A stretch of 64,000 nucleotides of DNA from a virus (Duplodnaviria; Caudoviricetes). This document shows positions 1,107-63,152 of this stretch, one piece after another. A program made the translations under genes and the position numbers. The notes beneath the pieces are model-generated. The model did not search any database. It saw only the letters and a program-made list of their open reading frames with translations, and was not told the origin of the DNA. Where the stretch lies: the IMG/VR virus record IMGVR_UViG_3300037851_000671, positions 32,001-96,000 of that record; one strand, written 5' to 3'. The first letter of the stretch is position 1; each line of letters begins with the position of its first letter.

Positions 1107-1793
1107 ATGGCACTAGAACTTGTACAATCAGGCTTTCAGCCACTTGGTCAGTTTGATGGAGCGGACGATGTTTACTTGACCGTCAAGGGTGGCGAGGTAG
1201 CTACTATAATTGGCGTATCAAGGACAGGCACTGACCTTCGCACAGCTGACGTGGCAAACGACGGATACGTTGGAACGACCCGTCCAGCAGCTACCACAAA
1301 TCTTACTTCCGGCAACCGTCCATTGTTCCTCGTGGACGATGGCATTGTTGGATACGGCACTCTGTTTGGTTCCGTCATTGGCGGAGTTGCCGGACAGATT
1401 ACGACAGGCGCTCCACTCGGACCACACACAGCCGCTGCCTCTGGCAAGCTGACACTGTGGGACAAGCCAGGCACCTATGCGATTACGCTTGATGCAGTCG
1501 ATACTACATCCGCAACCGGCTTGGTCCCAACCAACGCCACATTGCAGATTGGCGACGCTCTCTATGCAACAGCCACTGGTTTGGTAACTCCAAACAACGC
1601 TGTATCTTTCGAGAGCCCAGGCGCTTCGGCACCAAAGATTGGCCGTTTCCTCAACTTCGAGACCAACAAGGGTGGCGCACTCGTCACAACCCCAGTCAGC
1701 CTCGTAAGCGCTGCAAACAGCCCAGTAGGCCAGGGACAGCCACAGCTCTCCAGATTTGCCCGTGCGTTGATCTTCTTCAACCCACCTGTCTAA
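1107..1793 (+). CDS. Probable capsid decoration/cement protein
   Basis: 228 aa, Gly/Thr/Ala-rich and beta-rich, SD (aaagga) upstream, directly before the major capsid gene. Assignment is positional. Confidence 0.5.
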   Translation: MALELVQSGFQPLGQFDGADDVYLTVKGGEVATIIGVSRTGTDLRTADVANDGYVGTTRPAATTNLTSGNRPLFLVDDGIVGYGTLFGSVIGGVAGQITTGAPLGPHTAAASGKLTLWDKPGTYAITLDAVDTTSATGLVPTNATLQIGDALYATATGLVTPNNAVSFESPGASAPKIGRFLNFETNKGGALVTTPVSLVSAANSPVGQGQPQLSRFARALIFFNPPV

Positions 1794-1815
1794 GTTAGAG
1801 AGTTTTTTTCCGAAG

Positions 1816-1874
1816 GATCGGAGGGGTTTAGCGGCCCCTCCTGATCGCCAGGGTTGTTGACAGAGTTGGCAACC
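1816..1874 (+). promoter_or_regulatory. Two tandem RNA hairpins in the leader of the major capsid gene
   Basis: gatc-ggagggg (1816-1826) pairs with cccctcc-t-gatc (1835-1846); ggttgttgac (1852-1861) pairs with gttggcaacc (1865-1874) using three G-U pairs; SD caggag follows. Confidence 0.5.
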
Positions 1875-1899
1875 TATAACCAAAAACAGGAGTCTACAC

Positions 1900-4077: not shown

Positions 4078-4102
4078 TTGAACCAGTAACGGTTACATAA
4101 CG

Positions 4103-4132
4103 GAAGGCGGGATTATTCCCGCCTTCTTTTTT
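4103..4132 (+). terminator. Rho-independent terminator after the major capsid gene
   Basis: 10-bp stem gaaggcggga/tcccgccttc, ttat loop, followed by T6. Confidence 0.9.
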
Positions 4133-4170
4133 CTTTGCGTGACCCTAAATAATTCTAATCGTTTTTAACT

Positions 4171-4176: not shown

Positions 4177-4185
4177 TGGATCGGC

Positions 4186-4517: not shown

Positions 4518-7500
4518 TTGATAATGACAACAAATAGGCAAACTGTTATTGTTCCTGATGAAGTTACTTATCCAGACGGGTACGTTGTTACATATGACCT
4601 TGTAAGTCAGTCATTTGTACCTAAAGCCCCAATAACATCGTATGGTCCAACGGGTCCTACAGGGGCCACCGGTCCCATTGGCCTTGGGTATGCAGGGCTC
4701 ACTTCAAATACTAGTTTTGCATCTAGTGATACCGGTACTAAGATTCTAACAACAAATCTATCTTCTATACAAACCTCATTTGGTGTTGGAACAAGAATTA
4801 GGGTTGCTTCAGCGGCAACACCAACAGATTTTGTTGAAGGCATCATTGCGTCTTTTGGCGGTTCGCTGTTGAGTTTCACCATAGATTACAATTCTGGTAG
4901 CGGAACACATACAGATTGGAACATAAGCGTAGCTGGACAAGTTGGATCTACAGGACCAACCGGAGCAACGGGACCAACTGGTGCGACCGGAGCAACAGGA
5001 GCAACGGGATATGGAAACTATGATTTGAACAATCTGTACCCAAATGTAATTCAAGATCCAACTGGGTTTGCTACAAGAACAACATCAAAAGTGACACTGG
5101 ATGTTGGTAATAAAACCCTAATCATAGATCCTGTTGGTGGTTCAACGTTTGATTACTACATAATGGGTATCAAGTATACGGTTGGTACAAAATCGGTAGC
5201 TTGGACAGCTGTCGAAGGATCGCATTTCTTCTACCTAGACTCAAGTAGTAATCTGGTTCATACAACAGATCCAACGGTATGGGCGGCGTGCATTCTTGGA
5301 ACTGCTGGGGCACCTGTTTGGTTTTTGGCCTGGGATAATACCAATAGCAAAATCCTAAGATCCATTGAAGAAAGGCACGGAACACAGTTGCCTGGTTCTA
5401 TCCATTCTTATCTTCACACCTATTTGGGAACACAATGGAAAAGTGGTGGTGCGTTAGCAAACTTCACAATAAGCACTGGAGCTGCTGATTCGCACGCTCA
5501 ATTTTCTGTTGATGACGTTGTGATAGCTGATGAGGATTTGCAGAGAAGCATTACAAATGCTGCATCACAAGTATTGTCAACAGTAGCTCAGTTGCCTGTT
5601 TTTTATCTATCTGGCACAATTGCTAGTCCTGTTTTTAGATTCAAAGAAGCTGATACATTCCCATTCATACAAAGTGGCTCAGCGGGATATACCGGAGCAA
5701 ATGGTAGAATTGCGTATAACGAAAATACAGGTGCCAATTGGGTTTTGACAGAGGTTCCTGTAAACGACAATTACGTACTATCTCATATAATTGCAACACC
5801 AGCACCAGACGGCTACACACCGATTATGGCTGTGCTAGGACAGACGTTTTATACTACGCTGGCCAATGCAACAACGGGGGCAACTACTGAAGCAGGATCT
5901 CTTCAGGGTTTGGTGTCTTTGATGTCAACCGAGTATAAAATACTTGGAACGGTTATCTATCAAACAAATTCTGGATATGGAAACACAGTAAAAGCAAGAG
6001 TGGTTGCTCCGTCTACTGGTGGTAATTATGTTGATTTTAGAGCTTCCAAATTCAACAACTCCACTACACAAGGCGCTGCGGGACCAACCGGAATAGGGTA
6101 TGCTGGATTTTCTTCTGCAACTTCTTTTGCATCAAATACGACAGGGCCAATTTCAATAACTACAAACTTCGCCAATACAGCAACAGCTTTTGCGGTTGGG
6201 GATAGAATAAGGGTGGCATCTCTCGCTACGCCGACAGATTTTGTCGAGGGTATAGTTACAGCGTTTTCTGGAACGTCGTTGACATTTACATCTGATTTGA
6301 CATCAGGTTCTGGAACACATACTGATTGGGTTATTGGAATTGCTGGTCAACAGGGAACCACAGGACCAACAGGACCAACAGGTGCCACTGGGGCAACGGG
6401 AATTGGATACGCAGGTCTAACGTCATCCACATCTTTTGTAGCTTCTTCAGTTACGCCAGTAAGCCCGGCAACTATAACCACAAACCTAGCATCAACAGCG
6501 AGTGCATTTGCTGTAGGGGAGCGAGTACGAGTAGCCTCGGCCGGTACACCAGCAGATTACGCAGAAGGTCCAATTTCATCTTTCAGCGGCACTACCATGG
6601 TAATCACCTGGGATTTTGGTGCAGGATCTGGAAGTGCCCATACTGATTGGACTATTTCAGCAACCGGTGTGAGAGGTTCCACTGGACCTACTGGACCTAC
6701 TGGACCTACTGGACCTACTGGGGCCACAGGCGCTACTGGCCCTTTGGTTCCATTATCAACAATCCTTGGTGTTGGTGATACAACAGATGGAAATGACATT
6801 TACCTAACAGGAACTGACAGGTTATTAACTGATGCCGGTTACCTTGCAAAATCAGGTGGTTCAATACGTTTAAATGGAAAAGACGGGATTCCAGGCCAAG
6901 ATGGTTATTCTGTTTACATTCGTTCTGGAGACTCTATTGATGGGTACGCTGGTATCGCTATTACGTTATCTGCTGCCGTGTCTGGATCTTATGCTGGAGG
7001 GTTAAATCTATACACAGGAAATTTTGGTAGTTATGGTAAAGCGGCCAGTGCAAATATAAACAACGCATCTTCTGGACAGTCAGCGTATTGGTACATAACA
7101 TCCGGAGGTTTTGGTAGTGATACAGATGCAGTATTCCAACTAGGATCATCTTCGGCTTCCAATTCCTATGGTTGGAAACTTGCTGGTGGAACATTTGGAG
7201 GATCTGGCAACGGAACAGGCGCAACGCTTGAAGCAAAAGCTGTAACATCATCATACGGATCAGAGATATACATTAGCACAGGCGGAACAACCGATGGTTA
7301 TCCTGGTACGTCAATGTCGCTATGGAAAGCACAAAATGGTTTGAATGCCGGTGGTTTTAATCTATATACAGGCGATTTTGGAAGTTTTGGAAAAGCGGCA
7401 TCAGCAGTTATAGACGGGGCATCTGCTACACAATCGGCATATTGGTTCTTGTCATCTGGAGGTTTTGGAACACATTCAGGATCCACTTTCCAATTGGGTC

Positions 7501-9878
7501 GTGCAATTTCTGCTTCCACTTTTGGTTGGTCTTTGGTTGGTGGAAATTACACGGGAATAAGCAACACCGGAGCTAGTTTCTCTGGATCGAGTGCGTTATC
7601 AACAAACGGATCAAACATTACACTAACGTCTGGAATATCTCCAGATGGGTATCCGTCAGCTACATTAAATATTTACGGTGGTAGAACAGCAACCAGAGAT
7701 GGTTATGTTGGAATAAATTCCTGGCTTAAGATTGAAAGAAAGGCAGCCCCAACGGGTTTGGTAAACGTACTATATGCAAAATCTGCAACTAATGAACTGC
7801 ATTGGATTGATAACGCAGGAACCGATAATATCATATCTCCACCTGTAAGCATGCCAACCGGAACAGCTGCTCAAGTTCTTCAATACAACAACTCTTCTGT
7901 TCTTACAGCGCAGTCGATGTTGTATGCGTCTTCGACAACGATTACAGCAGCGCCAACACTTGGGTTTATCAGAGGTGCAGGTAGCGATGTTATCATTGGT
8001 GCTAAAATTGGAGCAAACAACTTCAACGCACTGAGCCTTGATGCTGGAACTACATCACTGTGGCTGGGCTCTACTGCGGCAGCTGGTCCTACATATTTGA
8101 AACTAGGATCGCCAAGCAATGTACAATTGCAGGTTGGTAGTACCAATGCAATTCAGATTGATACATCGAACATAACCATGGTGGGAGCTGATGGAAATAC
8201 AGGGGGAAGTATCTCTCTTAGTTCTGGCGCTAGCTCTTCCATGAACACAACCAAAGCATCTATTACAATTGTTCCTGCTAATAGCGGAACCACAGCAAAT
8301 ACAAATGGTCAGGTTGGAGTAACTGGCGCTATTGTACATGCACCAAACGTTTGTCAAAAACCAATGCCAGGAGATGGGTCTACGGCTTTTTGGTGGAAAC
8401 TTGATGAGCTTGGTGCTGCTGGAGCTGTTCCAACTGCATGGGCAAGCTCAGGTACGCAAAACGTCAATTTGATAAAAGTGGGTGGAGCTGTAGCTGTTGC
8501 TCAAGGAATTCATGGTAACTGTTTATCTTTTACAGCGGCAAATGCTGCTGTAGTTTGGAACAACCTAAACCAGGCTATAAGTTCGGCGATTACGTTGTCG
8601 TTCTGGATCAATCCATCAACGTTTATTGCTAACACGTATTTTGTCACCAAAGACTACTGGTCAGAGTTTACCTATAGCAAAGGTGGTTTTTATGTTGGTT
8701 TTTCGAGCAGCGCAACTGATAACTGGACAATTTCTGTAACTGATAATGGTGGTGGAACACACACATATGCATCATCAAATTTCGCTGTTCGTAATTTGCC
8801 AATAGGAACCTGGAGTCATGTTGCTATTAGCGTGGATAGCGTTGCTTTGTCTGTGTATCTTAATGGTAAATTGATATACCGCACAACAACCGGATACACA
8901 TTGGGTTCTAGTGGTGGTTGGCATCTTGGAGGTTTGTTGTGGGGTGATGGAACTGTAATGGCAAGCACCTGCTTCACTGGTTTGATTGATGATGTCAGGG
9001 TTGATAACACTGTCAGATCTTCAAAATACATTGCTGACCTGTACAACTCAGCTTTTGGAACAGCTCAAATATACGACGGAATTTACTCACCAGATGCAAG
9101 CACTTATCTCAGGTGGATTTTTAATGAAACCGGAACACCATGGAAACATTCTGGTTTCTATGGAGGCGCTCTTGATTTGACTGTTGGACAAGGAACTGTA
9201 GACGTTGCGCCTGGATTGTTTGTAAATTCTGTACGTACATCTATTGGGAGTTTGAAAACAGCTGATACATCTGTAAACCCAGGCAATACGTTCACTATAT
9301 CTGCTTGGGTAAATCTGAGTGCATATTCTGTGGTCGATCAACTAGCCAACCTGTATAGTATCATAATATGTAAAAACTATAGACCTGTTACCGATCCTAA
9401 TCCTTGGGCATCGCCATTTGCATCAATATACATAGCACTTACTGGTGCTATGGATGGCAGTTGGGAAATTAGATTGATTACAGGATCTGGTGTAGCGAAC
9501 CTTTTTAGCATTGGTGGTGCAAATGTAATACCGCTGAACACTTGGTGTTTGATATCTCTTACATATGATGGGTCTATTGTAAAGGCTTATCTTAATGGAA
9601 ATCTTGCGGCGAGTATGTCGGCCACCGGCAACGTTGACTATGGTACAAATGGCCCATGGATGGTTGGCGGAAGGCTGACCGGTGGTAACTGGGGTAGTAA
9701 CGCTCAATACTTTGATGGTATGATTGATGATGTAAGGGTTGAGACAACTGTACGTTCAGAGGCTTATCTCAAAGCAATGTACCAGAAGGGTTTTGTTGGA
9801 ATTACGTATGTTGATGTTCAGGGTAGGTTGGTATATCAATCACCAAACGGAAACATAACTGTACTTGGGGCTGGTTGA
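4518..9878 (+). CDS. Large modular fibre protein: collagen-like GPT repeats, three ~85-aa repeats, two C-terminal LamG/concanavalin-A-like domains
   Basis: GPTGPTGATG stretches; repeats GYAG.TS..SF...RIRVAS..TP.D..EG...HTDW at about 4686, 6096 and 6405; two domains with T.S.W.N, W..vAis.D, FdG.IDDVRv. ATG start probably 4524. Confidence 0.8.
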   Translation: MIMTTNRQTVIVPDEVTYPDGYVVTYDLVSQSFVPKAPITSYGPTGPTGATGPIGLGYAGLTSNTSFASSDTGTKILTTNLSSIQTSFGVGTRIRVASAATPTDFVEGIIASFGGSLLSFTIDYNSGSGTHTDWNISVAGQVGSTGPTGATGPTGATGATGATGYGNYDLNNLYPNVIQDPTGFATRTTSKVTLDVGNKTLIIDPVGGSTFDYYIMGIKYTVGTKSVAWTAVEGSHFFYLDSSSNLVHTTDPTVWAACILGTAGAPVWFLAWDNTNSKILRSIEERHGTQLPGSIHSYLHTYLGTQWKSGGALANFTISTGAADSHAQFSVDDVVIADEDLQRSITNAASQVLSTVAQLPVFYLSGTIASPVFRFKEADTFPFIQSGSAGYTGANGRIAYNENTGANWVLTEVPVNDNYVLSHIIATPAPDGYTPIMAVLGQTFYTTLANATTGATTEAGSLQGLVSLMSTEYKILGTVIYQTNSGYGNTVKARVVAPSTGGNYVDFRASKFNNSTTQGAAGPTGIGYAGFSSATSFASNTTGPISITTNFANTATAFAVGDRIRVASLATPTDFVEGIVTAFSGTSLTFTSDLTSGSGTHTDWVIGIAGQQGTTGPTGPTGATGATGIGYAGLTSSTSFVASSVTPVSPATITTNLASTASAFAVGERVRVASAGTPADYAEGPISSFSGTTMVITWDFGAGSGSAHTDWTISATGVRGSTGPTGPTGPTGPTGATGATGPLVPLSTILGVGDTTDGNDIYLTGTDRLLTDAGYLAKSGGSIRLNGKDGIPGQDGYSVYIRSGDSIDGYAGIAITLSAAVSGSYAGGLNLYTGNFGSYGKAASANINNASSGQSAYWYITSGGFGSDTDAVFQLGSSSASNSYGWKLAGGTFGGSGNGTGATLEAKAVTSSYGSEIYISTGGTTDGYPGTSMSLWKAQNGLNAGGFNLYTGDFGSFGKAASAVIDGASATQSAYWFLSSGGFGTHSGSTFQLGRAISASTFGWSLVGGNYTGISNTGASFSGSSALSTNGSNITLTSGISPDGYPSATLNIYGGRTATRDGYVGINSWLKIERKAAPTGLVNVLYAKSATNELHWIDNAGTDNIISPPVSMPTGTAAQVLQYNNSSVLTAQSMLYASSTTITAAPTLGFIRGAGSDVIIGAKIGANNFNALSLDAGTTSLWLGSTAAAGPTYLKLGSPSNVQLQVGSTNAIQIDTSNITMVGADGNTGGSISLSSGASSSMNTTKASITIVPANSGTTANTNGQVGVTGAIVHAPNVCQKPMPGDGSTAFWWKLDELGAAGAVPTAWASSGTQNVNLIKVGGAVAVAQGIHGNCLSFTAANAAVVWNNLNQAISSAITLSFWINPSTFIANTYFVTKDYWSEFTYSKGGFYVGFSSSATDNWTISVTDNGGGTHTYASSNFAVRNLPIGTWSHVAISVDSVALSVYLNGKLIYRTTTGYTLGSSGGWHLGGLLWGDGTVMASTCFTGLIDDVRVDNTVRSSKYIADLYNSAFGTAQIYDGIYSPDASTYLRWIFNETGTPWKHSGFYGGALDLTVGQGTVDVAPGLFVNSVRTSIGSLKTADTSVNPGNTFTISAWVNLSAYSVVDQLANLYSIIICKNYRPVTDPNPWASPFASIYIALTGAMDGSWEIRLITGSGVANLFSIGGANVIPLNTWCLISLTYDGSIVKAYLNGNLAASMSATGNVDYGTNGPWMVGGRLTGGNWGSNAQYFDGMIDDVRVETTVRSEAYLKAMYQKGFVGITYVDVQGRLVYQSPNGNITVLGAG
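6681..6721 (+). repeat. Perfect 9-nt tandem repeat (actggacct x4.5) encoding collagen-like TGP
   Basis: Read directly from the sequence. Confidence 0.9.
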
Positions 9879-10578
9879 GGGTAATATGTCGAAAGGTATA
9901 AATAACGCAAAAATATACAGCGGAGAGTTTAGAACATCTATATACAGGAATGGAAGTGGTTCGGCAATTCCAGATGCTATAACCATACAATCAATCAACA
10001 TGAAACAGTTACCAGTAGCGATTACTGATTTCTGTCATGTGTTTGTAGATTCGATCATCATGTTCAACATCTATCCTGGTGGCAGCACTGGTTCTGACGC
10101 TACCCATCACAACTTTGCAAGCTACTCTGGTGGTATGCAAAAAAGCGTAAAGCTGAACTATGATCCAATACTCCCATACCCTTTCTCAAAGAACAGCTCA
10201 TTTTCGGCATCTCCAACCAAGTTCCTTACCTATAGGCAGGGAAACACAAGACTAGATCCTGATATGTCATTCCAGGTAAGAACAACATCTGGTACTGACC
10301 TTTCGATATGGAGTGCATACTATGCTGTGCCAGACCCTGCATTGACGTTTTCTTCAGCTAACATCAATGGTGAAACACAGTCACGCGTAGACTTTTGTAA
10401 CATATGGGGAGTCGTTGGTATTGGTAATACGGAGATTACAAGGGCCGATCCTAATTCAATCAATGTCAATTGTGCTATGTTTGCAAATGCTGTAAATGGA
10501 AACGTCTCTGCACTGATAAACTATTCGTGTGTTTCTAGGATAGTGGTTGCTCAGCCAGATTTGTACGGGATAATATGA
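9865..10578 (+). CDS. Hypothetical beta-rich protein, possibly a fibre partner
   Basis: 237-aa ORF coupled to the fibre gene; likely start ATG 9886. Confidence 0.5.
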   Translation: MGLVEGNMSKGINNAKIYSGEFRTSIYRNGSGSAIPDAITIQSINMKQLPVAITDFCHVFVDSIIMFNIYPGGSTGSDATHHNFASYSGGMQKSVKLNYDPILPYPFSKNSSFSASPTKFLTYRQGNTRLDPDMSFQVRTTSGTDLSIWSAYYAVPDPALTFSSANINGETQSRVDFCNIWGVVGIGNTEITRADPNSINVNCAMFANAVNGNVSALINYSCVSRIVVAQPDLYGII

Positions 10579-11378
10579 AAGCAAGAAAGATCGTTGTCAT
10601 TTGCCCTTTCTCCAGACCTGAGTTTCAACAGAATGTTTTTGATAATTTCACACAGCAAACGTTCCACGGAAAAGAACTTGTTATTGTTGAGAATGGTGAG
10701 TCTGTTGGGAAATGGAAGCTACCAGCCACTCAGATTTTGAACTCTAACAAGCACCAAGCATCGGCAAAAAACACAGGCCTGCTCTATGTTGGCGAAAAGT
10801 TTCCAGACGCTTTGTGGACAACTTTCGATGATGATGACTACTACGGACCAGGGTACTTGGAAGAGCTAGCGGAAAATTCAGACAAGGCAGATGTAATTGG
10901 AAAAGCAAACATTTTCATGAAATCAAAAAGCGGAAAGCTTAGGTTCATAGACATCTGTAGAGAAAACGAATACTCAAATTACTTGTGGGGTTGTTCCATA
11001 TCTTCGTGGGTAAAAGATATCAATTTCCCATACACAGGGGTATGGGGAGAGGATAACACTTGGCTTGATATCGCTGAATCAAAGGGTCTGAAAATTTACG
11101 CTACATCTAGGTATAATGCATACATAAATAGGTGCCACGAAAGGAACACCTGGAGAACAACAGATCAAAACATAGTTAACACAAGCAATAAAGTTGTTGA
11201 ATATGAGTTTGATATAGATGTTATTAACAACAAAAAACAAGCTCAAGGCAAAGAACTTCAGAGATCTAATGCGTTTGATTTCTCTCATGTTGAGGAGCAA
11301 TTTAATCTTTCTGATTTTGAGAAGTTCATTGACGGGCACATAGAAGGAGAGTTATGGCAAAGATCACATCACCAGTAA
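10575..11378 (+). CDS. GT-A fold glycosyltransferase (GT2-like)
   Basis: N-terminal IVVICPFSRP..ELVIVENG and acidic DXD-type motif TFDDDDYYGPGYLEEL; ATGA overlap with the upstream gene. Confidence 0.75.
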   Translation: MKARKIVVICPFSRPEFQQNVFDNFTQQTFHGKELVIVENGESVGKWKLPATQILNSNKHQASAKNTGLLYVGEKFPDALWTTFDDDDYYGPGYLEELAENSDKADVIGKANIFMKSKSGKLRFIDICRENEYSNYLWGCSISSWVKDINFPYTGVWGEDNTWLDIAESKGLKIYATSRYNAYINRCHERNTWRTTDQNIVNTSNKVVEYEFDIDVINNKKQAQGKELQRSNAFDFSHVEEQFNLSDFEKFIDGHIEGELWQRSHHQ

Positions 11379-11713
11379 CCAACACAGAAATACCAAGTGG
11401 ATACTTTACCGTTACAGGAGAGATAGACGATGCTACAGAGGTAGTTGACGGATATGCGTGGTTGGTGATGGGACGCACTCATTATCATCATGTGATGTGG
11501 CCAAAGGCTAATGTCTCTGGAAATTTCAGTGAGTCAATTTTCGAAGGAGGGGATCCTGGCCCAATTATTTGCAGACTGATGGTAGTAACACCAAGCGTTC
11601 ATGAGAGGTTTATGGATGTTTCTGTAACTGATGCCGGTTTGGAAATACCAGACTTCGTGCAGCTTGACTATGTAAATCTGACAAAAACTGGAGATTTAGC
11701 GCCAAAGCCATGA
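11354..11713 (+). CDS. Small beta-sandwich (Ig-like) hypothetical protein
   Basis: 119 aa, SD gaaggag; AKITSP....I...FTVTGE pattern typical of Ig-like modules. Confidence 0.45.
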   Translation: MAKITSPVTNTEIPSGYFTVTGEIDDATEVVDGYAWLVMGRTHYHHVMWPKANVSGNFSESIFEGGDPGPIICRLMVVTPSVHERFMDVSVTDAGLEIPDFVQLDYVNLTKTGDLAPKP

Positions 11714-12569: not shown

Positions 12570-12580
12570 AAAGGAGCAAG

Positions 12581-13207: not shown

Positions 13208-14695
13208 ATGGCATCACGTCAAAACGCACTTGATCAAGAACTAGACATTGCTGGTTCACAACTACAATCATCAACAATGGTTTTGGCTGATGAGCCAAAT
13301 CTTTTGGGATCTCCGGTTACTGGACAAACTGGCGCAGCTGGAACAATTACGGCTGCCTCTGGCGGTATCAGTACAATGGATGGTCTTACCGGTATGACCG
13401 CTGATTCTGTTGGCAAATTCCTGACAGTTTCTGGAGCAGCTAATGCAGGAAATAACGGAACGTTTTTGATAGTTGCGTATAACTCTGCAACATCAGTAGA
13501 CATAGCAAACGTTTCTGGTGTATTTCCAGATGCGAATACAGGGGCTTTGGTATGGACTGAACGCAATCCATATTCTTTGCTTGATGACTTGAATTATGAG
13601 CGTACAGACCGCGCTGCTATCAAAGGTGTTGCGTATTCTGCGGCAATTCCTACATACACACGTCCAACCGCTACAGGAACACCAGTACCAGCAAACCTGT
13701 CAAATATAGCTGGTAAAACAACTGATGCTCAGGCCATTGTTGCCAATCGCAAATTTGAAGACCTTACAATTAATCTTGGTGACACTTATATCACACTAAG
13801 TGATACCGGAAACCTGAAACACGCTGATGCAATAGATAGAACAGGCGTACCAATCTGGGACGGTGCTGACGCTGGTAATTGGGAGGCAACATACTGTGAA
13901 ATCGCATCTCAGCAAGAACAGGAGTTGTTGGTTGTTGGAGGTCCATATGACGGATACAGAATCTTTGGACGTTCAAGGGCGGGGGCTTCTACATCTCCAA
14001 ACTCTGTTGAGGTAGAGTTCTTCTGTGTAAGGCGCGGAGATCCTGTCTCTACAGCTGTTGCTTACACATGGGATGGTTACCAGCCAACTTCGGTTGATAT
14101 CTACTACCCATACCGTACACGACTTGACCAGATGTCAGAAACGGCAATGCGCGTTCTTTTGGTCAATGGTTTGGTGAGCGATGCTGTTACAACAGAGCTG
14201 AATAACATCTATTCAACATTGGGCACAAATTCCACATCAACAAGCTTGGCAGGATTGTTGACCAATCTTGGAGCGTATTACCCATTCTATAACCTACCTG
14301 ACGCATCTCCGTCTGTGGTTGAGGCTTTAAACACTTTGAACGAGCAGATTGGAAACCGTGATTACACCGGACCAATACTCACTGACGGATATACCATTAC
14401 ACAGTCTCTGCAGCAACTTGCTAATGCTATTTCTGGAGCAACATCACAGAGGTACATTGAAAGGCTGGCGGCTTCGATTACAGCAAACACTGCACACACC
14501 CTACCAGGTGGTTTGACATATACACCAGATGGAACGAACAATGGTAAAAATATGTGGGTGTTTACGAGAGGTTTGTTGAGAGATCCGGGCCCAGTAAGCA
14601 GTGGAAATGACTACGCTGAAACAAGCTCAACACAGATAACTTTCTATTCCAAGCTTAATGCTGGCGATCACATAAACTACATCGTATACATCTGA
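13208..14695 (+). CDS. Probable structural appendage protein
   Basis: 495 aa, Thr/Gly/Ala-rich, SD aaggag; NNGTFLI module; C-terminal VFTRGLL..GNDYAETSSTQITF module; 3 DGY. Confidence 0.6.
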   Translation: MASRQNALDQELDIAGSQLQSSTMVLADEPNLLGSPVTGQTGAAGTITAASGGISTMDGLTGMTADSVGKFLTVSGAANAGNNGTFLIVAYNSATSVDIANVSGVFPDANTGALVWTERNPYSLLDDLNYERTDRAAIKGVAYSAAIPTYTRPTATGTPVPANLSNIAGKTTDAQAIVANRKFEDLTINLGDTYITLSDTGNLKHADAIDRTGVPIWDGADAGNWEATYCEIASQQEQELLVVGGPYDGYRIFGRSRAGASTSPNSVEVEFFCVRRGDPVSTAVAYTWDGYQPTSVDIYYPYRTRLDQMSETAMRVLLVNGLVSDAVTTELNNIYSTLGTNSTSTSLAGLLTNLGAYYPFYNLPDASPSVVEALNTLNEQIGNRDYTGPILTDGYTITQSLQQLANAISGATSQRYIERLAASITANTAHTLPGGLTYTPDGTNNGKNMWVFTRGLLRDPGPVSSGNDYAETSSTQITFYSKLNAGDHINYIVYI

Positions 14696-15317: not shown

Positions 15318-16433
15318 ATGTCACAGGATAACCTAATCCGAAAAGAAGACATACTCGATTCTGATTTCCACGATGCCTATGAACTTGGTTCTGATGGGTA
15401 TAGTGTCTATTTCTATGCTGCTAATGTAATATCCACAACAGCTATTACAAAAACAGTAGTAGTATCGGGTATCAATCATTCTGTCCGCGATAACAACGTG
15501 CAGGCAGAGGATAGGGTTTACCTTTATGGAACGTCTGGAGCTGATGGGTATTACACCATTGCTTCAATTATCAATGACACTTCTTTTACAGTCGCAGGAG
15601 AGATACCAAACTCATCTGGCGGATACTGTAACTACATCTATAGATCTGGTTCTTTAAATATTGGGTTTGATCCAACCAATACAAATAACATTACGGCCCA
15701 TAACGTTCAAGAAGCTATTGAGCAGTTGGATCAGGTTGTTACAGCAAACCCAACAGGTCTTGATGGATACAAGCATGCTGAGCTTAGACAGCTGATTCAT
15801 CTTGCTGATGGTGTTGGTGGTCCTTTTGAAGGGTTTACTACAGGTGCGTACAGGGAATACACCGGTTCAATGATATTCCCAACAAAGGTAACTTGGTATA
15901 CAAACCCAACTAAAACCAAGAAAATTGTAGAAAAACAGATAACCTACAATTCAAACCTTGCACCTACTCTAATCATTTGGAATGTGTATTTCAATGATGG
16001 TGTAAACGTTGCAGCTACCGCAACTGATACAATCACAAACTCTGGCCCATTTGAGGTATCTAGAGTTCGTACTATTGTTGACTACAGCGTTGCAAGCGGC
16101 GATCTGACATCTGAGACTCACAAGAGTTTGAGACAATTGATACACCTAGCAGAGGGTGTTGGCGGTCCATTTGAGACGTTCCCAAGCGGTGTTTACAGAG
16201 AGCTGAATCCAGTTGGACCATTCCCGACATCTGTCATTTGGTACATAGATTCCAGCAAACTGCAAAAGATTGTTGAAAAAACTGTCGTGTATAATTCCAA
16301 AAGTGTACCAACACAGATTACATGGAAAGTTTACGACACAAATGGCATTACAATTATGGCCACAGCAATTGACACAATAACATACTATCCTGGTACAGTG
16401 TTTGAGATGTCAAGGTCAAGGAACATCCTTTGA
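15318..16433 (+). CDS. Probable structural protein with a tandemly duplicated ~110-aa domain
   Basis: H..LRQLIHLA(D/E)GVGGPFE...KIVEK...A.A.DTIT occurs twice. Confidence 0.65.
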   Translation: MSQDNLIRKEDILDSDFHDAYELGSDGYSVYFYAANVISTTAITKTVVVSGINHSVRDNNVQAEDRVYLYGTSGADGYYTIASIINDTSFTVAGEIPNSSGGYCNYIYRSGSLNIGFDPTNTNNITAHNVQEAIEQLDQVVTANPTGLDGYKHAELRQLIHLADGVGGPFEGFTTGAYREYTGSMIFPTKVTWYTNPTKTKKIVEKQITYNSNLAPTLIIWNVYFNDGVNVAATATDTITNSGPFEVSRVRTIVDYSVASGDLTSETHKSLRQLIHLAEGVGGPFETFPSGVYRELNPVGPFPTSVIWYIDSSKLQKIVEKTVVYNSKSVPTQITWKVYDTNGITIMATAIDTITYYPGTVFEMSRSRNIL

Positions 16434-16476: not shown

Positions 16477-17541
16477 ATGTCATCAGAATCGCCAGCATCA
16501 ATTTTGTTTTCATCAGATGGATATGAATTAGCAGCGGTTACCGCTACAGCTATCCCTACTGGCACTCGTGGTCTTCTGGCAATGGGTTCTGATGGTACCA
16601 ATGCCAGGTTCATCAACGTTGACAGCTCTGCAAGGGTGATTACGGCCGGTGCTGGTGTTGCTGGTACTCCTGCCGGTGGCGTACTTAGCATTCAGGGTGT
16701 GGCTGGCGGTACGGCAATTCCTGTTTCGGGTAGCATTACAGCAAACAACGCCTCTGTATCTGCGACAGGATCTGCTCCTCCGGCATCTGCTACTTATATT
16801 GGTGGTAGCGTAACAACAGCCGCCCCCACATACACAACCGGACAGATGAATGCGCTTTCTCTGACAACAGCGGGAGCCTTGAGAGTTGATGGCTCTGGAG
16901 CCACTCAGCCAGTATCTGGTAGCGTAACAGTGAGCGGAACAGTTACTGCTAATCAGGGCACAGCCGCTGCAACAGCTAGTGCATGGCCAATAAAACTTAC
17001 TGACGCTACCAACACAGCCTCTTTGCTGAATACCACACCAGCCGGAACAGAATATGGTTTGGTTGTTAGGAATATTCCATCTGGCACACAGACAATATCA
17101 GGAACCGTTACGGCGAACGCTGGAACTGGTAACTTCACAGTTGTCCAAAACACAGCCGCAAACCTGAATGCTGCTGTTGTTGGTACTGGTGTGGCTGGTA
17201 CTCCTGCTGGTGGTGTGCTCACTGTCCAAGGTGCGTCTGGTGCAACCGCCCTTCCTGTTACAAATCAAAAAGCTGCAACATCGTCACTTTCAAACGTGCC
17301 TGGTTCGGCCACTAGCGTGACGTTGTTGGCTGCAAATGCAAATAGGCTTGGCGCTACAATATACAACGATTCAAGTTCTACGCTATATGTAAAATACGGA
17401 ACAACAGCATCAAACTCAAGTTTTACTATTAGACTGCTAGCGCAAGCATATCACGAGGTTGTATTTGATTACATCGGAAGGATTGATGGTATTTGGAATG
17501 CCTCTACTGGAAATGCTAGAATCACAGAACTAACAGCTTAA
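16477..17541 (+). CDS. Fibre-like protein (short paralogue of 17574..20918)
   Basis: Shares N-terminus MS.ESPAS.LF, internal G.GVAGTPAGGVL repeats and C-terminal SATSVTLLA.N.NR..ND domain with the next gene. Confidence 0.65.
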   Translation: MSSESPASILFSSDGYELAAVTATAIPTGTRGLLAMGSDGTNARFINVDSSARVITAGAGVAGTPAGGVLSIQGVAGGTAIPVSGSITANNASVSATGSAPPASATYIGGSVTTAAPTYTTGQMNALSLTTAGALRVDGSGATQPVSGSVTVSGTVTANQGTAAATASAWPIKLTDATNTASLLNTTPAGTEYGLVVRNIPSGTQTISGTVTANAGTGNFTVVQNTAANLNAAVVGTGVAGTPAGGVLTVQGASGATALPVTNQKAATSSLSNVPGSATSVTLLAANANRLGATIYNDSSSTLYVKYGTTASNSSFTIRLLAQAYHEVVFDYIGRIDGIWNASTGNARITELTA

Positions 17542-34810: not shown

Positions 34811-34856
34811 TGACACATGTACAGTGTCAAGTATGGTAATAATGATGTATTGCCTT

Positions 34857-45212: not shown

Positions 45213-45373
45213 CGGGGTCTTTTCGTTTTACCTACACTGGAATAAGATGCTGAATCGCGTCATCTATGTTTGCTTCTGAATCGTTATCGAGAGCAATCAA
45301 GTGCTTAGCTAGCAGATATACACGAAAAGATGCCTGTCAAGGAACGTGGCGGCGAATATTTCCGCATACGACC

Positions 45374-46318: not shown

Positions 46319-48796
46319 ATGGCGGCAAATATAGAAGGAGCTTCTAGAGCAGTACCTGGAACATACACAAGAACCGAAACCCTGCAAAGAGGGGTTAGTG
46401 TTCCTGCTGGTGCCCGTATTGCAATGATCATGGGCGAAGGTTTGACCCAGGAAACGCTGGTCGGATCGGCCAACGGAAATGGCAATGACGGTTTCAATTC
46501 AACCTACACATCAACAACAGGTTCTGATGGACGTCACTTCCTTCTTGGTCGTGGATCCGTAACCGTTGCCCCTGTGATTGAAAACAGGTCTCGTCTTTTC
46601 AAGAATGGAGTTGAGTTATCCGTTCTTGAGGGTGTAATAGATAACGCTGCGTTTGACAGTAGGTTTGATGCCAAGCTGGATCCGCTTACCGGACAGATTG
46701 TTCTTCAAGCTGCCAGACTTGTCGATCAGGGTGGAAGTCTATACAAGGCCTCTCTATCCAACGTAGGAACAGGAACCATCCAGAACCTTCAGCTTGTTGA
46801 TGTCAATGCGCCGCCAGAGACTTGGACCATCAGATGCTCAAGTGTTCGTAGAGATGGGTATGGAAACCCAATAGATGGTTATGCTAAATTCATTGCTCGT
46901 GGTTCTGTCAGCGGTTTGATTCTTGATGGTTATGGAAACCAGATTACATGGCAGTCAAACGGCACGGTAGTCTCTAACGGAATTCTCAGCTTCTCTATCG
47001 TAGAGGGTTTGATCAAGTTCCAAGAGGGAGATTCGTTTACGCTGGCCACAACAGCTGGAGCGTTGGTAGCTGGAGACTCTTTGAGTGCCAGGTACATCCC
47101 AGAGATATACCTAGAAGACCCAGAGTTTTTCACTGACTTGAATCAGTTGGTAGCCAAGCATGGTCAGCCAAGCACCACAGACGGAAGGCTGTCTTTGGGA
47201 GCGCAGTTGGCATTTGCTAACGGAACGCCAGGAGTATTTACACTACAGACAAAGCCATCATTGCCACGTAGAATTTCGTATTCTCTGGTAACTTCGGCTT
47301 CTGGTCTGACAAGCATTGACGACCTTACATTCGAGCTTCCGCTGAATGTGGTACCAGACGCTGACAGTAATATCAACTTCTTTGTAACGAACCCAATATC
47401 CAAGGCTGAGACACAGGTCATACCAAACAAGGTATCATTCTTCGACCCAACAATCACAGCCAACCCAGCATCGTTTGTGTACGGAGCATATAGCTGGTCA
47501 TACACGGTCATTCTTGATGACTCGGTACCAAAGCAGGGAATAGATGGTGTTTTGACTGTCACCGGCCCAACAACGGCTACATTGTCCAGTTTGACGGTGG
47601 CGTTTGACTCAAGCGATGTTTCTGTAACAAGAACGGTCAAGATCTATGACTCTCTGAATGGAAATGACGGAACGTATGCGATAGCCAGCGTAAGTGGTGG
47701 AGTGATGACGCTCTACAGTGGAACAGGATTTGGAACAAACGAAACAGGAGTTAGATTCGATGTTTTGGATTCCTCGGCACAGAGCTCAAAAATCTTGTTT
47801 ACACAGGATCTGGCACTGGCACTAGGCTCAGCTCTTAGGGCAACTGTAGTGGATGTCAAAGACGCACCGTTCTTTGATGCTGGATGGTTGGATGCATTTG
47901 CAGCGGCCGAGAAGGTCACTGTACAGATGATTGTACCACTTCCTGCACAAACAATCTCTGCAATCTTCCAGAACGGCAAGGTACACGTAGAGAAGATGAG
48001 TGATATCAGGAACAAGAATGAAAGAGTTCTTTTGATAGGAGCCATCAACGGTTTGACACCAGAAAACATCACTGGACAGAAGCCAGCAGCTGTTGAGGAC
48101 ATTGGTATCCTTGAGGGTATCCAGGGAGACAGCGTATCTGAGATTCTGGCCGGAAACACCGAAGATCTAGCTAACTACTCTATCTTTGATAACTACGGTG
48201 ACAGCTACCGCGTATTCTACTTCTACCCTGACCAGATTGTTGTTCAGATTGGAGCTGACAACGTTATAGTTGATGGTTTCTTCATGGCGGCAGCAGCGGC
48301 TGGATACTTCTCCGGCAACTCCTCTATCAACGAGCCATTGACCAACAAGAGGCTGTCAGGATTCTCTATTCTGCGTAACCGTTTGTACTCACCAATCGTA
48401 CAAGAGAACATTGTAAATAGCGGCGCAACCCTACTGGTACCAGTTGCCGGTGGTGGTCGCGTAATCTGGGGTAAGACAACCACGATAAGCCTGGCTGCGG
48501 AAGAGCAGGAGATGAGCATCATCTTCATTCGTGACTCTATTGCCAGCTCTATGCGTAGGGCGTTCCTGCCATACATTGGTCGCCCAGAGAGCCCAACATT
48601 CCAAACATCTCTATATGCAGTAGCCCAAGGGTTGATGCAGAGCTTCATTGAGCAGAGACTGATCACAGCCTACGCAGGTTTGACAGTGAAGCGTGATGAT
48701 GTTGAGCCAAGACAGTGGAATATAACGGTTGCAGTACAGCCTACATATCCTGTCAACTGGATTTACATCAAGATTAATGTTGGAAGGCTGGATTAA
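46319..48796 (+). CDS. Contractile tail sheath protein
   Basis: N-terminal PGTYTRTE; C-terminal FFMAAAAAG...EPLTNK...E.S..FIRD...NITVAVQPTYPVNWIYIKINV. Confidence 0.9.
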   Translation: MAANIEGASRAVPGTYTRTETLQRGVSVPAGARIAMIMGEGLTQETLVGSANGNGNDGFNSTYTSTTGSDGRHFLLGRGSVTVAPVIENRSRLFKNGVELSVLEGVIDNAAFDSRFDAKLDPLTGQIVLQAARLVDQGGSLYKASLSNVGTGTIQNLQLVDVNAPPETWTIRCSSVRRDGYGNPIDGYAKFIARGSVSGLILDGYGNQITWQSNGTVVSNGILSFSIVEGLIKFQEGDSFTLATTAGALVAGDSLSARYIPEIYLEDPEFFTDLNQLVAKHGQPSTTDGRLSLGAQLAFANGTPGVFTLQTKPSLPRRISYSLVTSASGLTSIDDLTFELPLNVVPDADSNINFFVTNPISKAETQVIPNKVSFFDPTITANPASFVYGAYSWSYTVILDDSVPKQGIDGVLTVTGPTTATLSSLTVAFDSSDVSVTRTVKIYDSLNGNDGTYAIASVSGGVMTLYSGTGFGTNETGVRFDVLDSSAQSSKILFTQDLALALGSALRATVVDVKDAPFFDAGWLDAFAAAEKVTVQMIVPLPAQTISAIFQNGKVHVEKMSDIRNKNERVLLIGAINGLTPENITGQKPAAVEDIGILEGIQGDSVSEILAGNTEDLANYSIFDNYGDSYRVFYFYPDQIVVQIGADNVIVDGFFMAAAAAGYFSGNSSINEPLTNKRLSGFSILRNRLYSPIVQENIVNSGATLLVPVAGGGRVIWGKTTTISLAAEEQEMSIIFIRDSIASSMRRAFLPYIGRPESPTFQTSLYAVAQGLMQSFIEQRLITAYAGLTVKRDDVEPRQWNITVAVQPTYPVNWIYIKINVGRLD

Positions 48797-50565: not shown

Positions 50566-50570
50566 TTAGA

Positions 50571-60986: not shown

Positions 60987-61004
60987 ACCACAGGAAATTC
61001 TACC

Positions 61005-63152
61005 ATGGTATGTAATCCAGCAGACAACTCATTCGACCTTCCGGTTTTGCCACCGTTGAATATTCCTGGTATTGGAAATCCTACTTCTGTTCCAAAATTG
61101 CCAATTCCAGATGTAACAATTCCAGAAGGCATACCAGAAGACATCATTGCGCTGATAGATCAGATTTCAGCCTTGTTCCCAACTGGAATAAAACTTGGAC
61201 CAAATCCAGGTAAGTTTTTCAAAGACGTAATGGATGCTATTGCCAACCTGTTTACGGTGATAGCTCCATTCCTTGCTTTCTACAAATTCATACAGGCCAT
61301 TCTTGATATCATTGTATGTATCATTGATGTAATCTGTGCTTTATTGAACCCATTTGCTTTACCTGGAGCAGTGATGAAGCTGTTCAAGAAATGCATTCCT
61401 AATTTCTTGAGCCTGTTTCCGTTTTTAGCTCTTATCGTAATGATTATTGCTCTACTTCTATTGCTGTTGGCTATTATAGAGTATATAATCAATGTAATAA
61501 TTGATGTCATAAACCAGATTATACAGAACATAAAAAGGCTTGAGGAGGCTTTTAGAGCAAGTGACTCTGAGGGCATTCTAGCCATCATCAGGAAAATCTC
61601 ATACCTGCTGTGTTTGATACAGAACGTATTTGCAATCCTGATAGCATTGCAATCACTACTGGCAATCATCCAGCCGCTAATGGAGCTGAGTGGATTTGGA
61701 ATATGTAGCGACAAGGATGCATGCTGTGGCCCTGACTTCTGCCCTCCGTTCATCAAGAACAACCCAGATGGAATCAAGGGTAACGTTGGGCACCTTTACT
61801 ACATGCCACAAATCAACCAAACACCAGATCCATCACTTACAGTGCCTATGGATTTGGCCCCAAGAAGAGCGGAGTTTTGGCAGTTTTTTGAGGAGGCGAA
61901 TTCAGCTCCTAACATCATTGCCTCAATCATCACTCCATCTCCAAATCTAGGACTTACGTTCTGGGCAGAGGGAGAGTCTTACGCCGACGACGCCAACAAG
62001 ATCAAGGTTCCATATCTTCTTGATATGACCTTCCTGATTGATCCAAAACAATTTGGGCATACCGATGACAAACTAGGAAGGCGCAAATTCCAGATTAAAG
62101 ACATCATTATCAAACAGAAGCCTACAACTTTCCGCAAAAACTACAATGACGCTACTGGAAACGCTTCTGTCTACATACCAAACGGAGTGGCTGTTATCGG
62201 CGGTGGAACGGTATGGGAAGTTCAGAGCGATGGGTCTCTCACCTCATACATGGTCAATGGTAAGCAAGCTACGCTAAATACATTCATTCATCTTCCTACC
62301 ACAAATGCCATTGCCCTACCGTCTACCGATGATGGTTACATGATAAATCAGATTGAGTATACATTCAGGTGGAACTATGAAATGCTGGTAGACAAGCGCC
62401 TTACCTCAATGATGTGTAATCCGCTTTTGGCAAGTGAATCGGCTGTCATAAACGTCGAGAATGACAACATGTCAACAATGGCAAAGATTGGTCCAATGCC
62501 AGATCCATCCAAAACGGTTGCAGCATGTAACAAGTGTATCTCAGAGTTCAGAAAGGGTATCAACGAAGATACGGCCAATGCTTTGCAGGCTTGTTTGCTT
62601 AGTAACCTCAACGGACTAAAGGATGAGACAACGGCGTATTTGTGCAACGCCATCACGGTGGCCGCTAACAGGTTTACAAGCGATGTATCAGTTACTCCTA
62701 AAGTACAGTTTGTGACGCTGCCAATCAAGGTTGCTGTAACGCTCAAGGACAAGAGCGGAACGCAGTTGGCTGTCAAAATTCCAACAGACCTTGGTGAGTG
62801 TATTGCAAAATCCATAACAGCACGTTCTGTTGTTGGACCAAACGGAGAACCAACACTTGGAAAGATAAGCGAGTTCTCATATGATGGTTACGGGCAATTT
62901 GTAGCAGATCTTACAACCAAGGAAGCTGGTGTCGGTTACTTGCAAGCGTATATCAAAGACGAATCAATATCGCGAATACTGAACCGTGACAACCTTACTA
63001 TAAATTCGTCTTTTGAGGAGCTACTTGTCCAGTATGAGTTTGTGGGCGGAGTCAGACCTACAAGCCGCAGAACGGTTCTTAGCGAGGAGCGTGGTGGCGA
63101 TCAGACGGTTGATCGTTTTGATGCGAGCGATACTTCCAAGGATGGTAGCTAA
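61005..63152 (+). CDS. Baseplate-region protein with a long hydrophobic helical segment and Cys clusters
   Basis: FPFLALIVMIIALLLLLLAIIEYIINVIIDVI; CSDKDACCGPDFC; follows the spike. Confidence 0.5.
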   Translation: MVCNPADNSFDLPVLPPLNIPGIGNPTSVPKLPIPDVTIPEGIPEDIIALIDQISALFPTGIKLGPNPGKFFKDVMDAIANLFTVIAPFLAFYKFIQAILDIIVCIIDVICALLNPFALPGAVMKLFKKCIPNFLSLFPFLALIVMIIALLLLLLAIIEYIINVIIDVINQIIQNIKRLEEAFRASDSEGILAIIRKISYLLCLIQNVFAILIALQSLLAIIQPLMELSGFGICSDKDACCGPDFCPPFIKNNPDGIKGNVGHLYYMPQINQTPDPSLTVPMDLAPRRAEFWQFFEEANSAPNIIASIITPSPNLGLTFWAEGESYADDANKIKVPYLLDMTFLIDPKQFGHTDDKLGRRKFQIKDIIIKQKPTTFRKNYNDATGNASVYIPNGVAVIGGGTVWEVQSDGSLTSYMVNGKQATLNTFIHLPTTNAIALPSTDDGYMINQIEYTFRWNYEMLVDKRLTSMMCNPLLASESAVINVENDNMSTMAKIGPMPDPSKTVAACNKCISEFRKGINEDTANALQACLLSNLNGLKDETTAYLCNAITVAANRFTSDVSVTPKVQFVTLPIKVAVTLKDKSGTQLAVKIPTDLGECIAKSITARSVVGPNGEPTLGKISEFSYDGYGQFVADLTTKEAGVGYLQAYIKDESISRILNRDNLTINSSFEELLVQYEFVGGVRPTSRRTVLSEERGGDQTVDRFDASDTSKDGS

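Follow-up and report, generated by a model that had tools for sequence, protein, structure and literature searches.

An Asp-Gly-Tyr tripeptide enriched in outer virion proteins and avoided in inner tail proteins of a clade of huge phages: a candidate tyrosine glycosylation sequon

The stretch of DNA analysed in this study (the window) comprises bases 32,001-96,000 of one 218,772-bp virus record (G000). In the fibre, neck, and tail proteins that face outward, the tripeptide Asp-Gly-Tyr (DGY) is present in this uncultured huge phage and in hundreds of relatives at 10 to 30 times the frequency expected by chance, and it is avoided in their inner tail proteins. We consider it highly probable that DGY is a functional, exposed tag, which needs the hydroxyl group of its tyrosine and is read by some factor. 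The reading that we favour, at a rough probability of 0.4, is that DGY is a candidate Tyr O-glycosylation sequon for a genomic island led by a family 4 glycosyltransferase (GT4).

For the counting, the open reading frames (ORFs) of the window were chosen by a mechanical, greedy procedure, which gave 50 ORFs with 20,853 amino acids (aa). This set contains 51 DGY across 15 ORFs, and the + strand ORF 1107-1793 adds one more, giving 52 in 16 ORFs. The first-pass annotation of this DNA had reported about 52 in 16 proteins, which is exact, and its numbers for the individual ORFs are identical to ours. The chance level of about 4 given there agrees with the 3.7 computed from the composition of each protein. 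In 2000 per-protein shuffles, the mean number of DGY was 3.65 with a standard deviation of 1.9 and a maximum of 11, so the excess persists against the shuffled control that had been proposed. The Poisson p of DGY is 1.7e-39, while the runner-up tripeptide in the window has a p of 5e-6. A composition artefact was ruled out by these shuffles together with same-composition permutations of the residues.

The excess is confined to the exact sequence D-G-Y. In the window, DGF occurs 9 times (4.2 expected), NGY 4 times (4.0), EGY not at all (2.4), DAY once (3.2), and the reversed YGD 5 times (3.7); DGV, DGI, and DGT are present at ordinary frequency. Tyr comes next after one third of the DG dipeptides and Asp stands before half of the GY dipeptides, whereas the same fractions in T4 and phage G are 7-19%.

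At the DNA level, GAYGGNTAY has 55 matches on the + strand, of which 51 are in frame 0; the - strand has two. The Asp and Tyr codons in DGY are used as elsewhere in the window, and Gly is encoded by all four codons, with GGG at 24% vs 8% elsewhere and GGT at 27% vs 40%. The frame bias and the varied codons therefore indicate selection at the peptide level, as had been claimed. The accompanying statement that the codons vary freely holds for Asp and Tyr but not for Gly, whose codons are skewed towards GGG and away from GGT. A DNA-level motif (restriction, methylation, packaging) was ruled out by the same frame and strand counts, as well as by the lack of an excess of GAR-GGN-TAY, coding for EGY, and by the varied third codon positions. 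A shared repeat domain was rejected too: the flanks of the 51 window sites are dissimilar, and no repeat-domain signature (e.g., Kelch) surrounds them.

The DGY-bearing genes of the window are the following:

1107..1793, + strand, 228-aa Gly/Thr/Ala-rich ORF, one DGY at residue 52 (nucleotide (nt) 1260)
4518..9878, + strand, 1786-aa fibre-like protein, seven DGY at residues 20, 431, 795, 808, 926, 1043, and 1061
11354..11713, + strand, 119-aa protein, one DGY at residue 32
13208..14695, + strand, 495-aa protein, three DGY at residues 248, 289, and 393
15318..16433, + strand, 371-aa protein, three DGY at residues 26, 76, and 149
16477..17541, + strand, 354-aa protein, one DGY at residue 14
17574..20918, + strand, 1114-aa protein, one DGY at residue 50
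24052..25245, + strand, 397-aa protein, one DGY at residue 18, straight after a poly-Gly/Ser N-terminal arm
27929..28264, + strand, 111-aa protein, two DGY at residues 23 and 30
28281..29177, + strand, 298-aa protein, one DGY at residue 110
33206..34810, + strand, 534-aa protein, five DGY at residues 26, 186, 189, 228, and 287
35739..38810, + strand, 1023-aa protein, 13 DGY
39329..44398, + strand, 1689-aa protein, seven DGY
45266..46213, + strand, 315-aa protein just upstream of the sheath gene, one DGY at residue 171
46319..48796, + strand, 825-aa tail sheath, three DGY at residues 179, 186, and 203 (nt 46853-46861, 46874-46882, and 46925-46933)
61005..63152, + strand, 715-aa protein, two DGY at residues 443 and 627

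Six DGY of the 1023-aa protein are arrayed in tandem at residues 768-789 (nt 38040-38105), and an array of four is present in the 1689-aa protein at residues 1486-1502 (nt 43784-43834). These tandem arrays appear to be loop insertions, because both are aligned to gaps in the homologues.

Seven genes located downstream of the sheath gene, between 48827 and 60986, contain no DGY in the window:

48827-49489, + strand, tube (a weak label, from its position and a weak PHROG match)
49503-50237, + strand, 244-aa protein, whose family has DGY in relatives
50221-50565, + strand, 114-aa protein
50562-52748, + strand, tape-measure-like protein (sub-threshold PF20155 match)
52771-53802, + strand, 343-aa protein
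53827-58992, + strand, 1721-aa protein
58992-60986, + strand, 664-aa protein

For the analysis across the clade, the proteins of the relatives were grouped by their best match to the window ORFs, and avoidance was measured for the families of the tube, the 114-aa, the tape-measure-like, the 343-aa, and the 1721-aa proteins. DGY exceeds its expectation 19-fold in the 534-aa family, 13-fold in the 1689-aa family, 16-fold in the 315-aa family, 18-fold in the sheath family, and 6-fold in the 1023-aa family. The inner families have 0 DGY vs 3.1 expected (tube, 107 homologues), 0 vs 0.2 (114-aa), 0 vs 2.9 (tape-measure-like), 0 vs 3.3 (343-aa), and 1 vs 13.2 (1721-aa).

To allow for homologues that are not independent, alignment columns were counted, and same-composition tripeptides served as the internal control. 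The numbers of columns were as follows:

DGY: 1 in inner families, 78 in outer families
Same-composition permutations: 12, 8, 7, 5, and 10 in inner families, 9-27 in outer families
DGF: 26 in inner families, 23 in outer families
DGV: 23 in inner families, 47 in outer families
DGT: 36 in inner families, 59 in outer families
DGI: 34 in inner families, 31 in outer families

The split of the DGY columns gives a Fisher p of 2e-8 against the permutations and of 1e-12 against DGF, and the Poisson p for at most one inner column at 8.4 expected is 0.002. Judging by these alignments, the inner tail families use D-G turns and DGF freely and avoid DGY. The first-pass annotation had noted that the motif is absent from inner tail proteins; this holds, and the absence amounts to avoidance, with one column compared with 5-12 for the permutation controls. 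Avoidance in hidden proteins argues against a passive structural motif or a site acting only on the finished particle. It therefore points to a factor by which DGY is read on late proteins that are not yet assembled.

The whole record contains 79 DGY vs 10.8 expected, spread over more than 20 proteins. With module boundaries (36-110.4 kb and 146-156 kb) that were chosen after seeing the data, the 57 proteins of the virion and fibre modules have 75 DGY vs 5.6 expected (z 28), and the remaining 177 proteins have 4 vs 5.0. The short motif is thus found on many unrelated proteins and not on the others, as is the case for a sequon. The sequon N-x-S/T and the Bacteroidota O-glycosylation motif D-(S/T)-(A/I/L/V/M/T) (PMC8698959) are not enriched in the record, which also has no Ser/Thr-rich tracts; therefore, DGY is the sole candidate sequon. 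The record is probably about half a genome, since relatives of ~208 kb are rated 49% complete and the complete relatives measure 440-460 kb.

When the sheath was used as a query, more than 350 IMG/VR contigs were found at 41-72% identity, with a GC content of 0.29-0.56. In 85 loci (the sheath gene +/-10 kb), 612 DGY were counted vs 67.5 expected, with a 3- to 20-fold excess in nearly every locus. A second scan of 48 loci, many of them on contigs already counted, gave 379 vs 42.5. The 120 homologues of the last fibre protein have a mean of 7.5 DGY vs 0.23 expected. In all, an excess of 7- to 15-fold is shared by more than 130 relatives in IMG/VR. Thus, the proposal of a phage-wide short linear tag holds for the clade, with selection at the peptide level. 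We also searched 2.9 million viral contigs for DNA coding for DGYDGYDGY: 33 of the 44 stretches found encode arrays in frame, and about 20 of the 33 come from this clade or its fibre homologues. Outside the clade, the 50 kb of structural genes of Bacillus phage G contain 4 DGY vs 2.6 expected, and T4 has 10 vs 2.7, three of them in paralogous seg endonucleases; the tripeptide ranks with ordinary noise in T4. An unrelated contig (G013) encodes a 421-aa Kelch-like propeller protein (L204:16941-18206) with 9 DGY in its repeats (xxDGYxYxFGG). There, DGY is part of a structural repeat, which is a different situation.

The sheath at 46319-48796 was identified by tblastn, a weak Pfam match, and its fold. 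A first AlphaFold2 (AF2) model built from 16 sequences had a predicted local distance difference test score (pLDDT) of 47 and was discarded, as it gave no usable structure for the DGY region. The model obtained from 89 sequences reached a pLDDT of 84.5. It matches the sheath of phage 812 with a Z of 33.2 and a root-mean-square deviation of 2.6 over 322 aligned residues, and that of pyocin R2 with a Z of 29; Foldseek gave an E of 3e-14 for the sheath match. With the cores of phage 812, pyocin R2, AFP, T4, and others, ~315-328 of the 825 residues superpose at Z 25-33, so the conserved sheath core fold is present. In the model, DGY 179, 186, and 203 belong to coil segments that separate short strands of a beta-rich region with a pLDDT of 86-92, and site 460-461, occupied in relatives, is a two-residue turn between strands 451-459 and 462-466. 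All 15 alignment columns with DGY in the sheath family are at residues 68-475, and none is in the C-terminal region matching other sheaths and Phage_sheath_1; that region has a DGF (652-654) instead, the Gly of which is invariant. Extra sheath domains are known to decorate the tail exterior. The domain, the secondary structure of the model, and the substitution spectrum described below together suggest that DGY is exposed, and the outward-facing location claimed in the first-pass annotation agrees with the restriction of the sheath columns to residues outside the C-terminal core.

These positions also bear on the earlier suggestion of a protease site, which would be cut by the prohead protease or another maturation protease. 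It is true that 9 of the 51 sites fall in the first 50 residues of eight proteins, against roughly 4 expected by a rough estimate. However, DGY also occurs in fibre-like proteins and the sheath, as well as within domains and as tandem arrays; it is not limited to head proteins, where it would delimit propeptides, and in the sheath the conserved sites belong to a domain modelled with confidence. A role in proteolytic maturation is hardly credible.

In spite of their strong conservation in slowly evolving proteins, the sites move during evolution over the whole clade. The conserved fraction of the sheath DGY is 0.88 vs 0.29 for average tripeptides, and that of the neighbouring 315-aa protein is 0.93 vs 0.17, with site 171 kept in 14 of 15 homologues. 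Among 89 distinct sheaths the mean is 2.7 DGY vs 0.15 expected, and exactly three are found in 56 of them. Meanwhile, the subclades use different sets of the 15 columns, namely {179, 186, 203}, {68, 151, 409}, and {409, 460, (179)}. New sites in the sheath arise at pre-existing D/N-G turns (NGT to DGY at 151, DGV to DGY at 409 and 460). In the 1689-aa family, which evolves fast, the sites are spread over 42 columns, with 2-11 copies per protein. It appears from these alignments that the number of sites, and not their place, is under selection. A maintained count with free placement therefore argues for a position-independent function and against a partner that fits a lattice.

The first-pass annotation had listed docking of a decoration protein among its proposals. 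The partner would be one phage decoration, cement, or fibril protein with DGY as its docking site, forming a coat over the fibres, sheath, neck, and head. Such a protein could account for the avoidance in inner proteins too and for the restriction to exposed domains, and hairy sheaths exist in some jumbo phages. Yet the sites shift among sheath domains (68, 151, 179-203, 409, 460) while the count stays near three, up to six copies are packed within 22 residues in the arrays, and no candidate partner was identified. We regard this docking role as very unlikely.

The tyrosine itself was examined at the DGY columns where it is lost while D-G is kept. The residues that take its place are V, A, E, T, N, I, S, and K, the spectrum expected for an exposed position. 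Of such cells, 0 of 98 in the sheath alignment and 2 of 100 over seven families have Phe, whereas Phe accounts for 26-48% of the substitutions at the variable Tyr columns that served as controls in the same alignments. Counted by columns, Phe is present in 2 of 13 DGY columns vs 432 of 782 control columns (Fisher p 0.005). This pattern suggests that the tyrosine does not behave as a structural aromatic and that its hydroxyl matters.

A structural role without any reader, in which DGY would be a type I' Asp-Gly turn plus a Tyr suited to beta-rich outer proteins, gains from the inter-strand turn at 460-461, from the origin of new sites at D/N-G turns, from the mild excess in T4 structural genes, and from the Kelch-like repeats of the unrelated phage protein. 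It is nevertheless quite unlikely, since the excess is limited to Tyr and Asp while DGF, DGV, DGI, DGT, and NGY are ordinary, and a structural aromatic would swap with Phe. Moreover, beta-rich inner proteins take DGF, DGV, and DGI but avoid DGY, disordered tandem arrays make no structural sense, and phage G has no excess.

Several DGY proteins carry recognizable binding domains. The 1786-aa protein has two ConA-like (Laminin_G_3) domains along with a weak collagen-like stretch; among the giant DGY proteins, the ConA-like domains score above the Pfam cut-off, and the collagen-like stretches are weak and sub-threshold. The last fibre protein (996 aa; L025:13332-16322; genome 107,332-110,322) has a dockerin-like domain at residues 601-666 with two DVNGDG calcium loops (PF00404, E 3e-8), which DGY 599 and 637 flank as separate elements. 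The DxDxDG pattern of EF-hand, dockerin, or RTX sequences was absent from the flanks of the 79 sites of the record and of 168 sites of relatives.

DGY could also be a non-covalent binding element, in which the Asp carboxylate and the Tyr hydroxyl, repeated in many copies on the virion surface, bind an ion or a polysaccharide (host capsule, extracellular polysaccharide, or the phage's own glycan) and provide avidity for adhesion or stability. The exposed loops, the need for the hydroxyl, the flexible position with a constant count, the tandem arrays in linkers, the ConA-like lectin domains, and the dockerin-like calcium-binding domain all fit. However, a passive surface ligand gives no reason for avoidance in hidden inner tail proteins, and a lone Asp-Gly-Tyr, with neither an EF-hand nor DxDxDG in its flanks, makes a poor binding site. 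We therefore consider such binding unlikely.

The GT4 gene is located at genome 110,349-111,467, 27 nt after the last fibre gene and ~14 kb beyond the window. It opens an island of 19 kb, which contains GT4, five GT2, GT10, GT11, and a CgeB-like glycosyltransferase, FkbM and class I methyltransferases, an ATP-grasp enzyme, a DegT aminotransferase, a GDP-mannose dehydratase (Gmd), and an Fcl-like epimerase. Above the curated Pfam cut-off are GT4, the five GT2, GT10, GT11, Glyco_trans_1_2, Gmd, the epimerase, and the DegT aminotransferase. The virus thus encodes both glycosyltransferases and sugar-nucleotide enzymes. The GT4 protein matches PF13439 (30.8 bits) and PF00534 (27.3 bits), both above cut-off, and E263 and E271 of its EX7E motif are invariant in a 42-sequence alignment.

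GT4 has 526 homologues, and the 120 that were listed are all at least 51% identical to it. It directly follows the last fibre gene in all four relatives checked for adjacency, while the other island genes vary; it is also present in G001, G002, G004, and G005. Eight relatives have GT2 clusters downstream of the sheath gene, at a distance of ~30 kb, and GT2 clusters or GT4 are present in the records of ten. In a distant subclade (G003 L193:903-3167; G004, G005), GT4 forms the C-terminal half of a 754-789-aa protein, the N-terminal part of which is a second GT4-like module (PF20706 'GT4-conflict' match).

The first-pass annotation had suggested, as one option, Tyr glycosylation by a glycosyltransferase encoded within the window (10575..11378, + strand, 267-aa weak GT2-like protein). 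Its GT2 match of 19.3 bits is below the 23.3 cut-off, and no homologue was found in G003, which is complete and DGY-rich, or in G004 or G011. The enzyme is therefore better sought in the conserved GT4 of the island. Sequence searches of the PDB with GT4, the 566-aa island protein, and the 10575 protein gave no usable match, and a complex prediction for GT4 with sheath residues 140-262 had a score of 0.00, which weighs neither way. A crude hydropathy scan of the island revealed no polytopic membrane protein and a single 327-aa protein with one or two hydrophobic segments. No polytopic protein that could serve as a membrane oligosaccharyltransferase or lipid-carrier initiator was seen in the island or in the record, which is probably about half a genome and was scanned in the same crude way. 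The pathway would therefore be soluble and cytoplasmic, with the glycan assembled straight on a soluble acceptor.

A different enzymatic change on the Tyr or on the Asp-Gly bond, made by a phage or host enzyme, would fit the need for the hydroxyl, the inner avoidance, and the site turnover equally well. Sulfation, phosphorylation, nucleotidylation, oxidative cross-linking through dityrosine or dihydroxyphenylalanine (DOPA), and isoaspartate formation belong here, and Tyr/Gly/Asp-rich arrays resemble cross-linked elastomers. Nevertheless, no kinase, sulfotransferase, or tyrosinase turned up in the record, probably about half a genome, which was not scanned for them specifically; oxidative cross-linking in the cytoplasm is improbable, and the glycan island is the only large conserved set of modification genes beside the virion genes. 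We consider these other modifications rather unlikely.

If DGY is the glycosylation sequon proposed here, the pathway may be outlined as follows. DGY would be displayed on loops or beta-turn tips of the outer sheath domains and of neck-region and fibre-like proteins. A phage factor that needs the Tyr hydroxyl would read it in the infected cell before assembly, and this reader would most likely be the phage's own cytoplasmic glycosylation pathway. The retaining GT4 would attach the first sugar to the Tyr. The GT2, GT10, GT11, and CgeB-like transferases, the methyltransferases, the ATP-grasp enzyme, and the GDP-sugar enzymes of the island would then extend and decorate the glycan, and a glycan coat over all exposed virion surfaces would result. 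We infer here that the island acts on proteins, that DGY is the acceptor, and that Tyr is the modified residue.

Single elements of this scheme are known from other systems. The cytoplasmic GT4 enzyme GtfA starts the glycosylation of serine-rich adhesins, and EarP glycosylates the tip of a beta-hairpin in EF-P. As proposed here, in the GtfA/GtfB and EarP systems a soluble GT-B enzyme starts the glycan in the cytoplasm and soluble transferases extend it. The acceptors, however, are Ser/Thr or Arg, and the phage GT4 has no sequence homologue in the PDB. Chlorovirus PBCV-1 Vp54 and the mimivirus fibrils share with our system a large virus-encoded soluble set of enzymes, a complex, partly methylated, fucose-containing glycan, independence from host membrane machinery, and non-canonical acceptor motifs. 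They differ in belonging to eukaryotic viruses and, in chloroviruses, in the N-linkage to Asn; to our knowledge, neither an enriched tripeptide throughout the proteome nor avoidance in inner proteins has been reported for them.

The sequon systems N-x-S/T (including cytoplasmic HMW1C/NGT) and the Bacteroidota motif likewise use three residues on many unrelated proteins, with sites on exposed loops and evolutionary turnover. Here, in contrast, the acceptor would be Tyr, and the proposed system would be phage-encoded and cytoplasmic. Tyr O-glycans are known on the S-layers of Paenibacillus alvei (SpaA) and Thermoanaerobacter (PMC2943079, PMC4397588), which demonstrates a stable glycan-Tyr linkage on prokaryotic surface lattices. 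There, a lipid carrier bears the growing glycan, which a membrane oligosaccharyltransferase with no known consensus motif then transfers outside the cytoplasm; our scans did not reveal an enzyme of this type. Phage-encoded virion glycosylation has been described for mycobacteriophages (Freeman 2023, as cited in PMC12619734). As far as that summary goes, soluble phage glycosyltransferases near structural genes presumably act on exposed virion proteins in both cases; one or two enzymes and the Ser/Thr-rich C-terminal tails of capsid and tail-tube subunits are involved there. In the present phage we find about ten glycosyltransferases with sugar-nucleotide enzymes and a Tyr tripeptide in more than 20 proteins with the tube excluded. 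The 'moraphage' paper reports core glycosyltransferases in another, possibly the same, aquatic lineage, and no motif (PMC12619734). Literature searches for a DGY motif or Tyr glycosylation in phages gave nothing relevant, in line with the statement in the first-pass annotation that no system of this kind has been described. It is possible, at slightly longer odds than for the sequon itself, that this is both the first tyrosine sequon and the first virion-wide sequon of a phage, started by a GT4, with fixed sites per subunit and the motif purged from inner proteins.

Several points weigh against glycosylation at DGY. The inner and outer labels, that of the sheath excepted, rest on gene order and weak matches, and the non-independence of homologues makes family-level p-values optimistic. 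DGY is not scarcer than expected in early and middle proteins (4 vs 5.0), so the reader must be made late, which is an extra assumption. We know of no Tyr-directed GT4 and of no Tyr sequon. Modification of DGY is not demonstrable from sequence, and the island could act instead on DNA, on host envelope glycans, or on Ser/Thr sites. All long contigs of the clade carry both the island and DGY, so their co-occurrence does not discriminate. The sister lineage G011 has GT4 after the last fibre gene and an island, yet its DGY excess is only 2.2-fold; 17 of its 22 DGY are in three large proteins of the baseplate-fibre block, and none is in the sheath. The G006 lineage (L188, L207, and L208), the one clearly DGY-poor lineage, has 0, 0, and 2 DGY in its fibre orthologues and none in its sheath. 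In at least three independent assemblies (42, 52, and 155 kb), its contig ends ~300 bp past the last fibre gene, at the place where the island starts in relatives. The genome may terminate there, or the assembly may break at a hypervariable island.

The sheaths of G011 (L196-L202) and G012 are 1089-1093 aa long, 37-45% identical in pieces, and free of DGY. Two profile scans for an outgroup within the clade lacking both DGY and the island gave only relatives of at least 41% identity, nearly all DGY-rich, and IMG/VR contains no close relative of the DGY-poor L123 sheath.

The PHROG and Pfam scans gave few or no matches for most virion ORFs of the window. Of the functional labels in the first-pass annotation, that of the sheath was borne out by its fold (Z 33), and those of the tube and the tape measure at 50562 received weak support; most others were not confirmed. 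The ORF 25446-26546, amid presumed virion genes, encodes a class V aminotransferase or cysteine-desulfurase-like pyridoxal phosphate enzyme (Atlas template-modelling (TM) score 0.9) and is not a capsid protein; the major capsid gene was not identified. An ESM Atlas search with the 534-aa DGY protein was uninformative (pLDDT 0.43, TM <0.35). The ORF 1107-1793 is overlapped by an antisense ORF, and all of its neighbour genes are on the + strand. The 715-aa protein encoded at 61005 is very hydrophobic at residues 75-229 (Kyte-Doolittle values up to 3.5) and may be a membrane-inserting tail or ejection protein. Two endonuclease genes were also observed: 2284-3198, a LAGLIDADG homing endonuclease with a helix-turn-helix domain inserted among structural genes, and 34782-35711, a second endonuclease (PHROG 4645) between two DGY-rich genes.

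In phages where annotation by homology is nearly absent, outer and inner virion proteins can be told apart by their DGY density, a practical use that needs no knowledge of the reader. Phage biology would gain a new rule if the outward-facing virion proteins of hundreds of uncultured huge phages are indeed marked by a code of three residues. Should it be a glycosylation sequon, it would imply a new enzyme specificity, that of a soluble Tyr-directed transferase, which may serve with its compact tag in site-specific glycoengineering. It would also give a reason for the ~20 kb of glycan genes in these phages. Huge phages would then shield or functionalise their whole surface with sugars, which would bear on host recognition, defence, and the avoidance of predation, and may be relevant to the stability of virions in water and soil.

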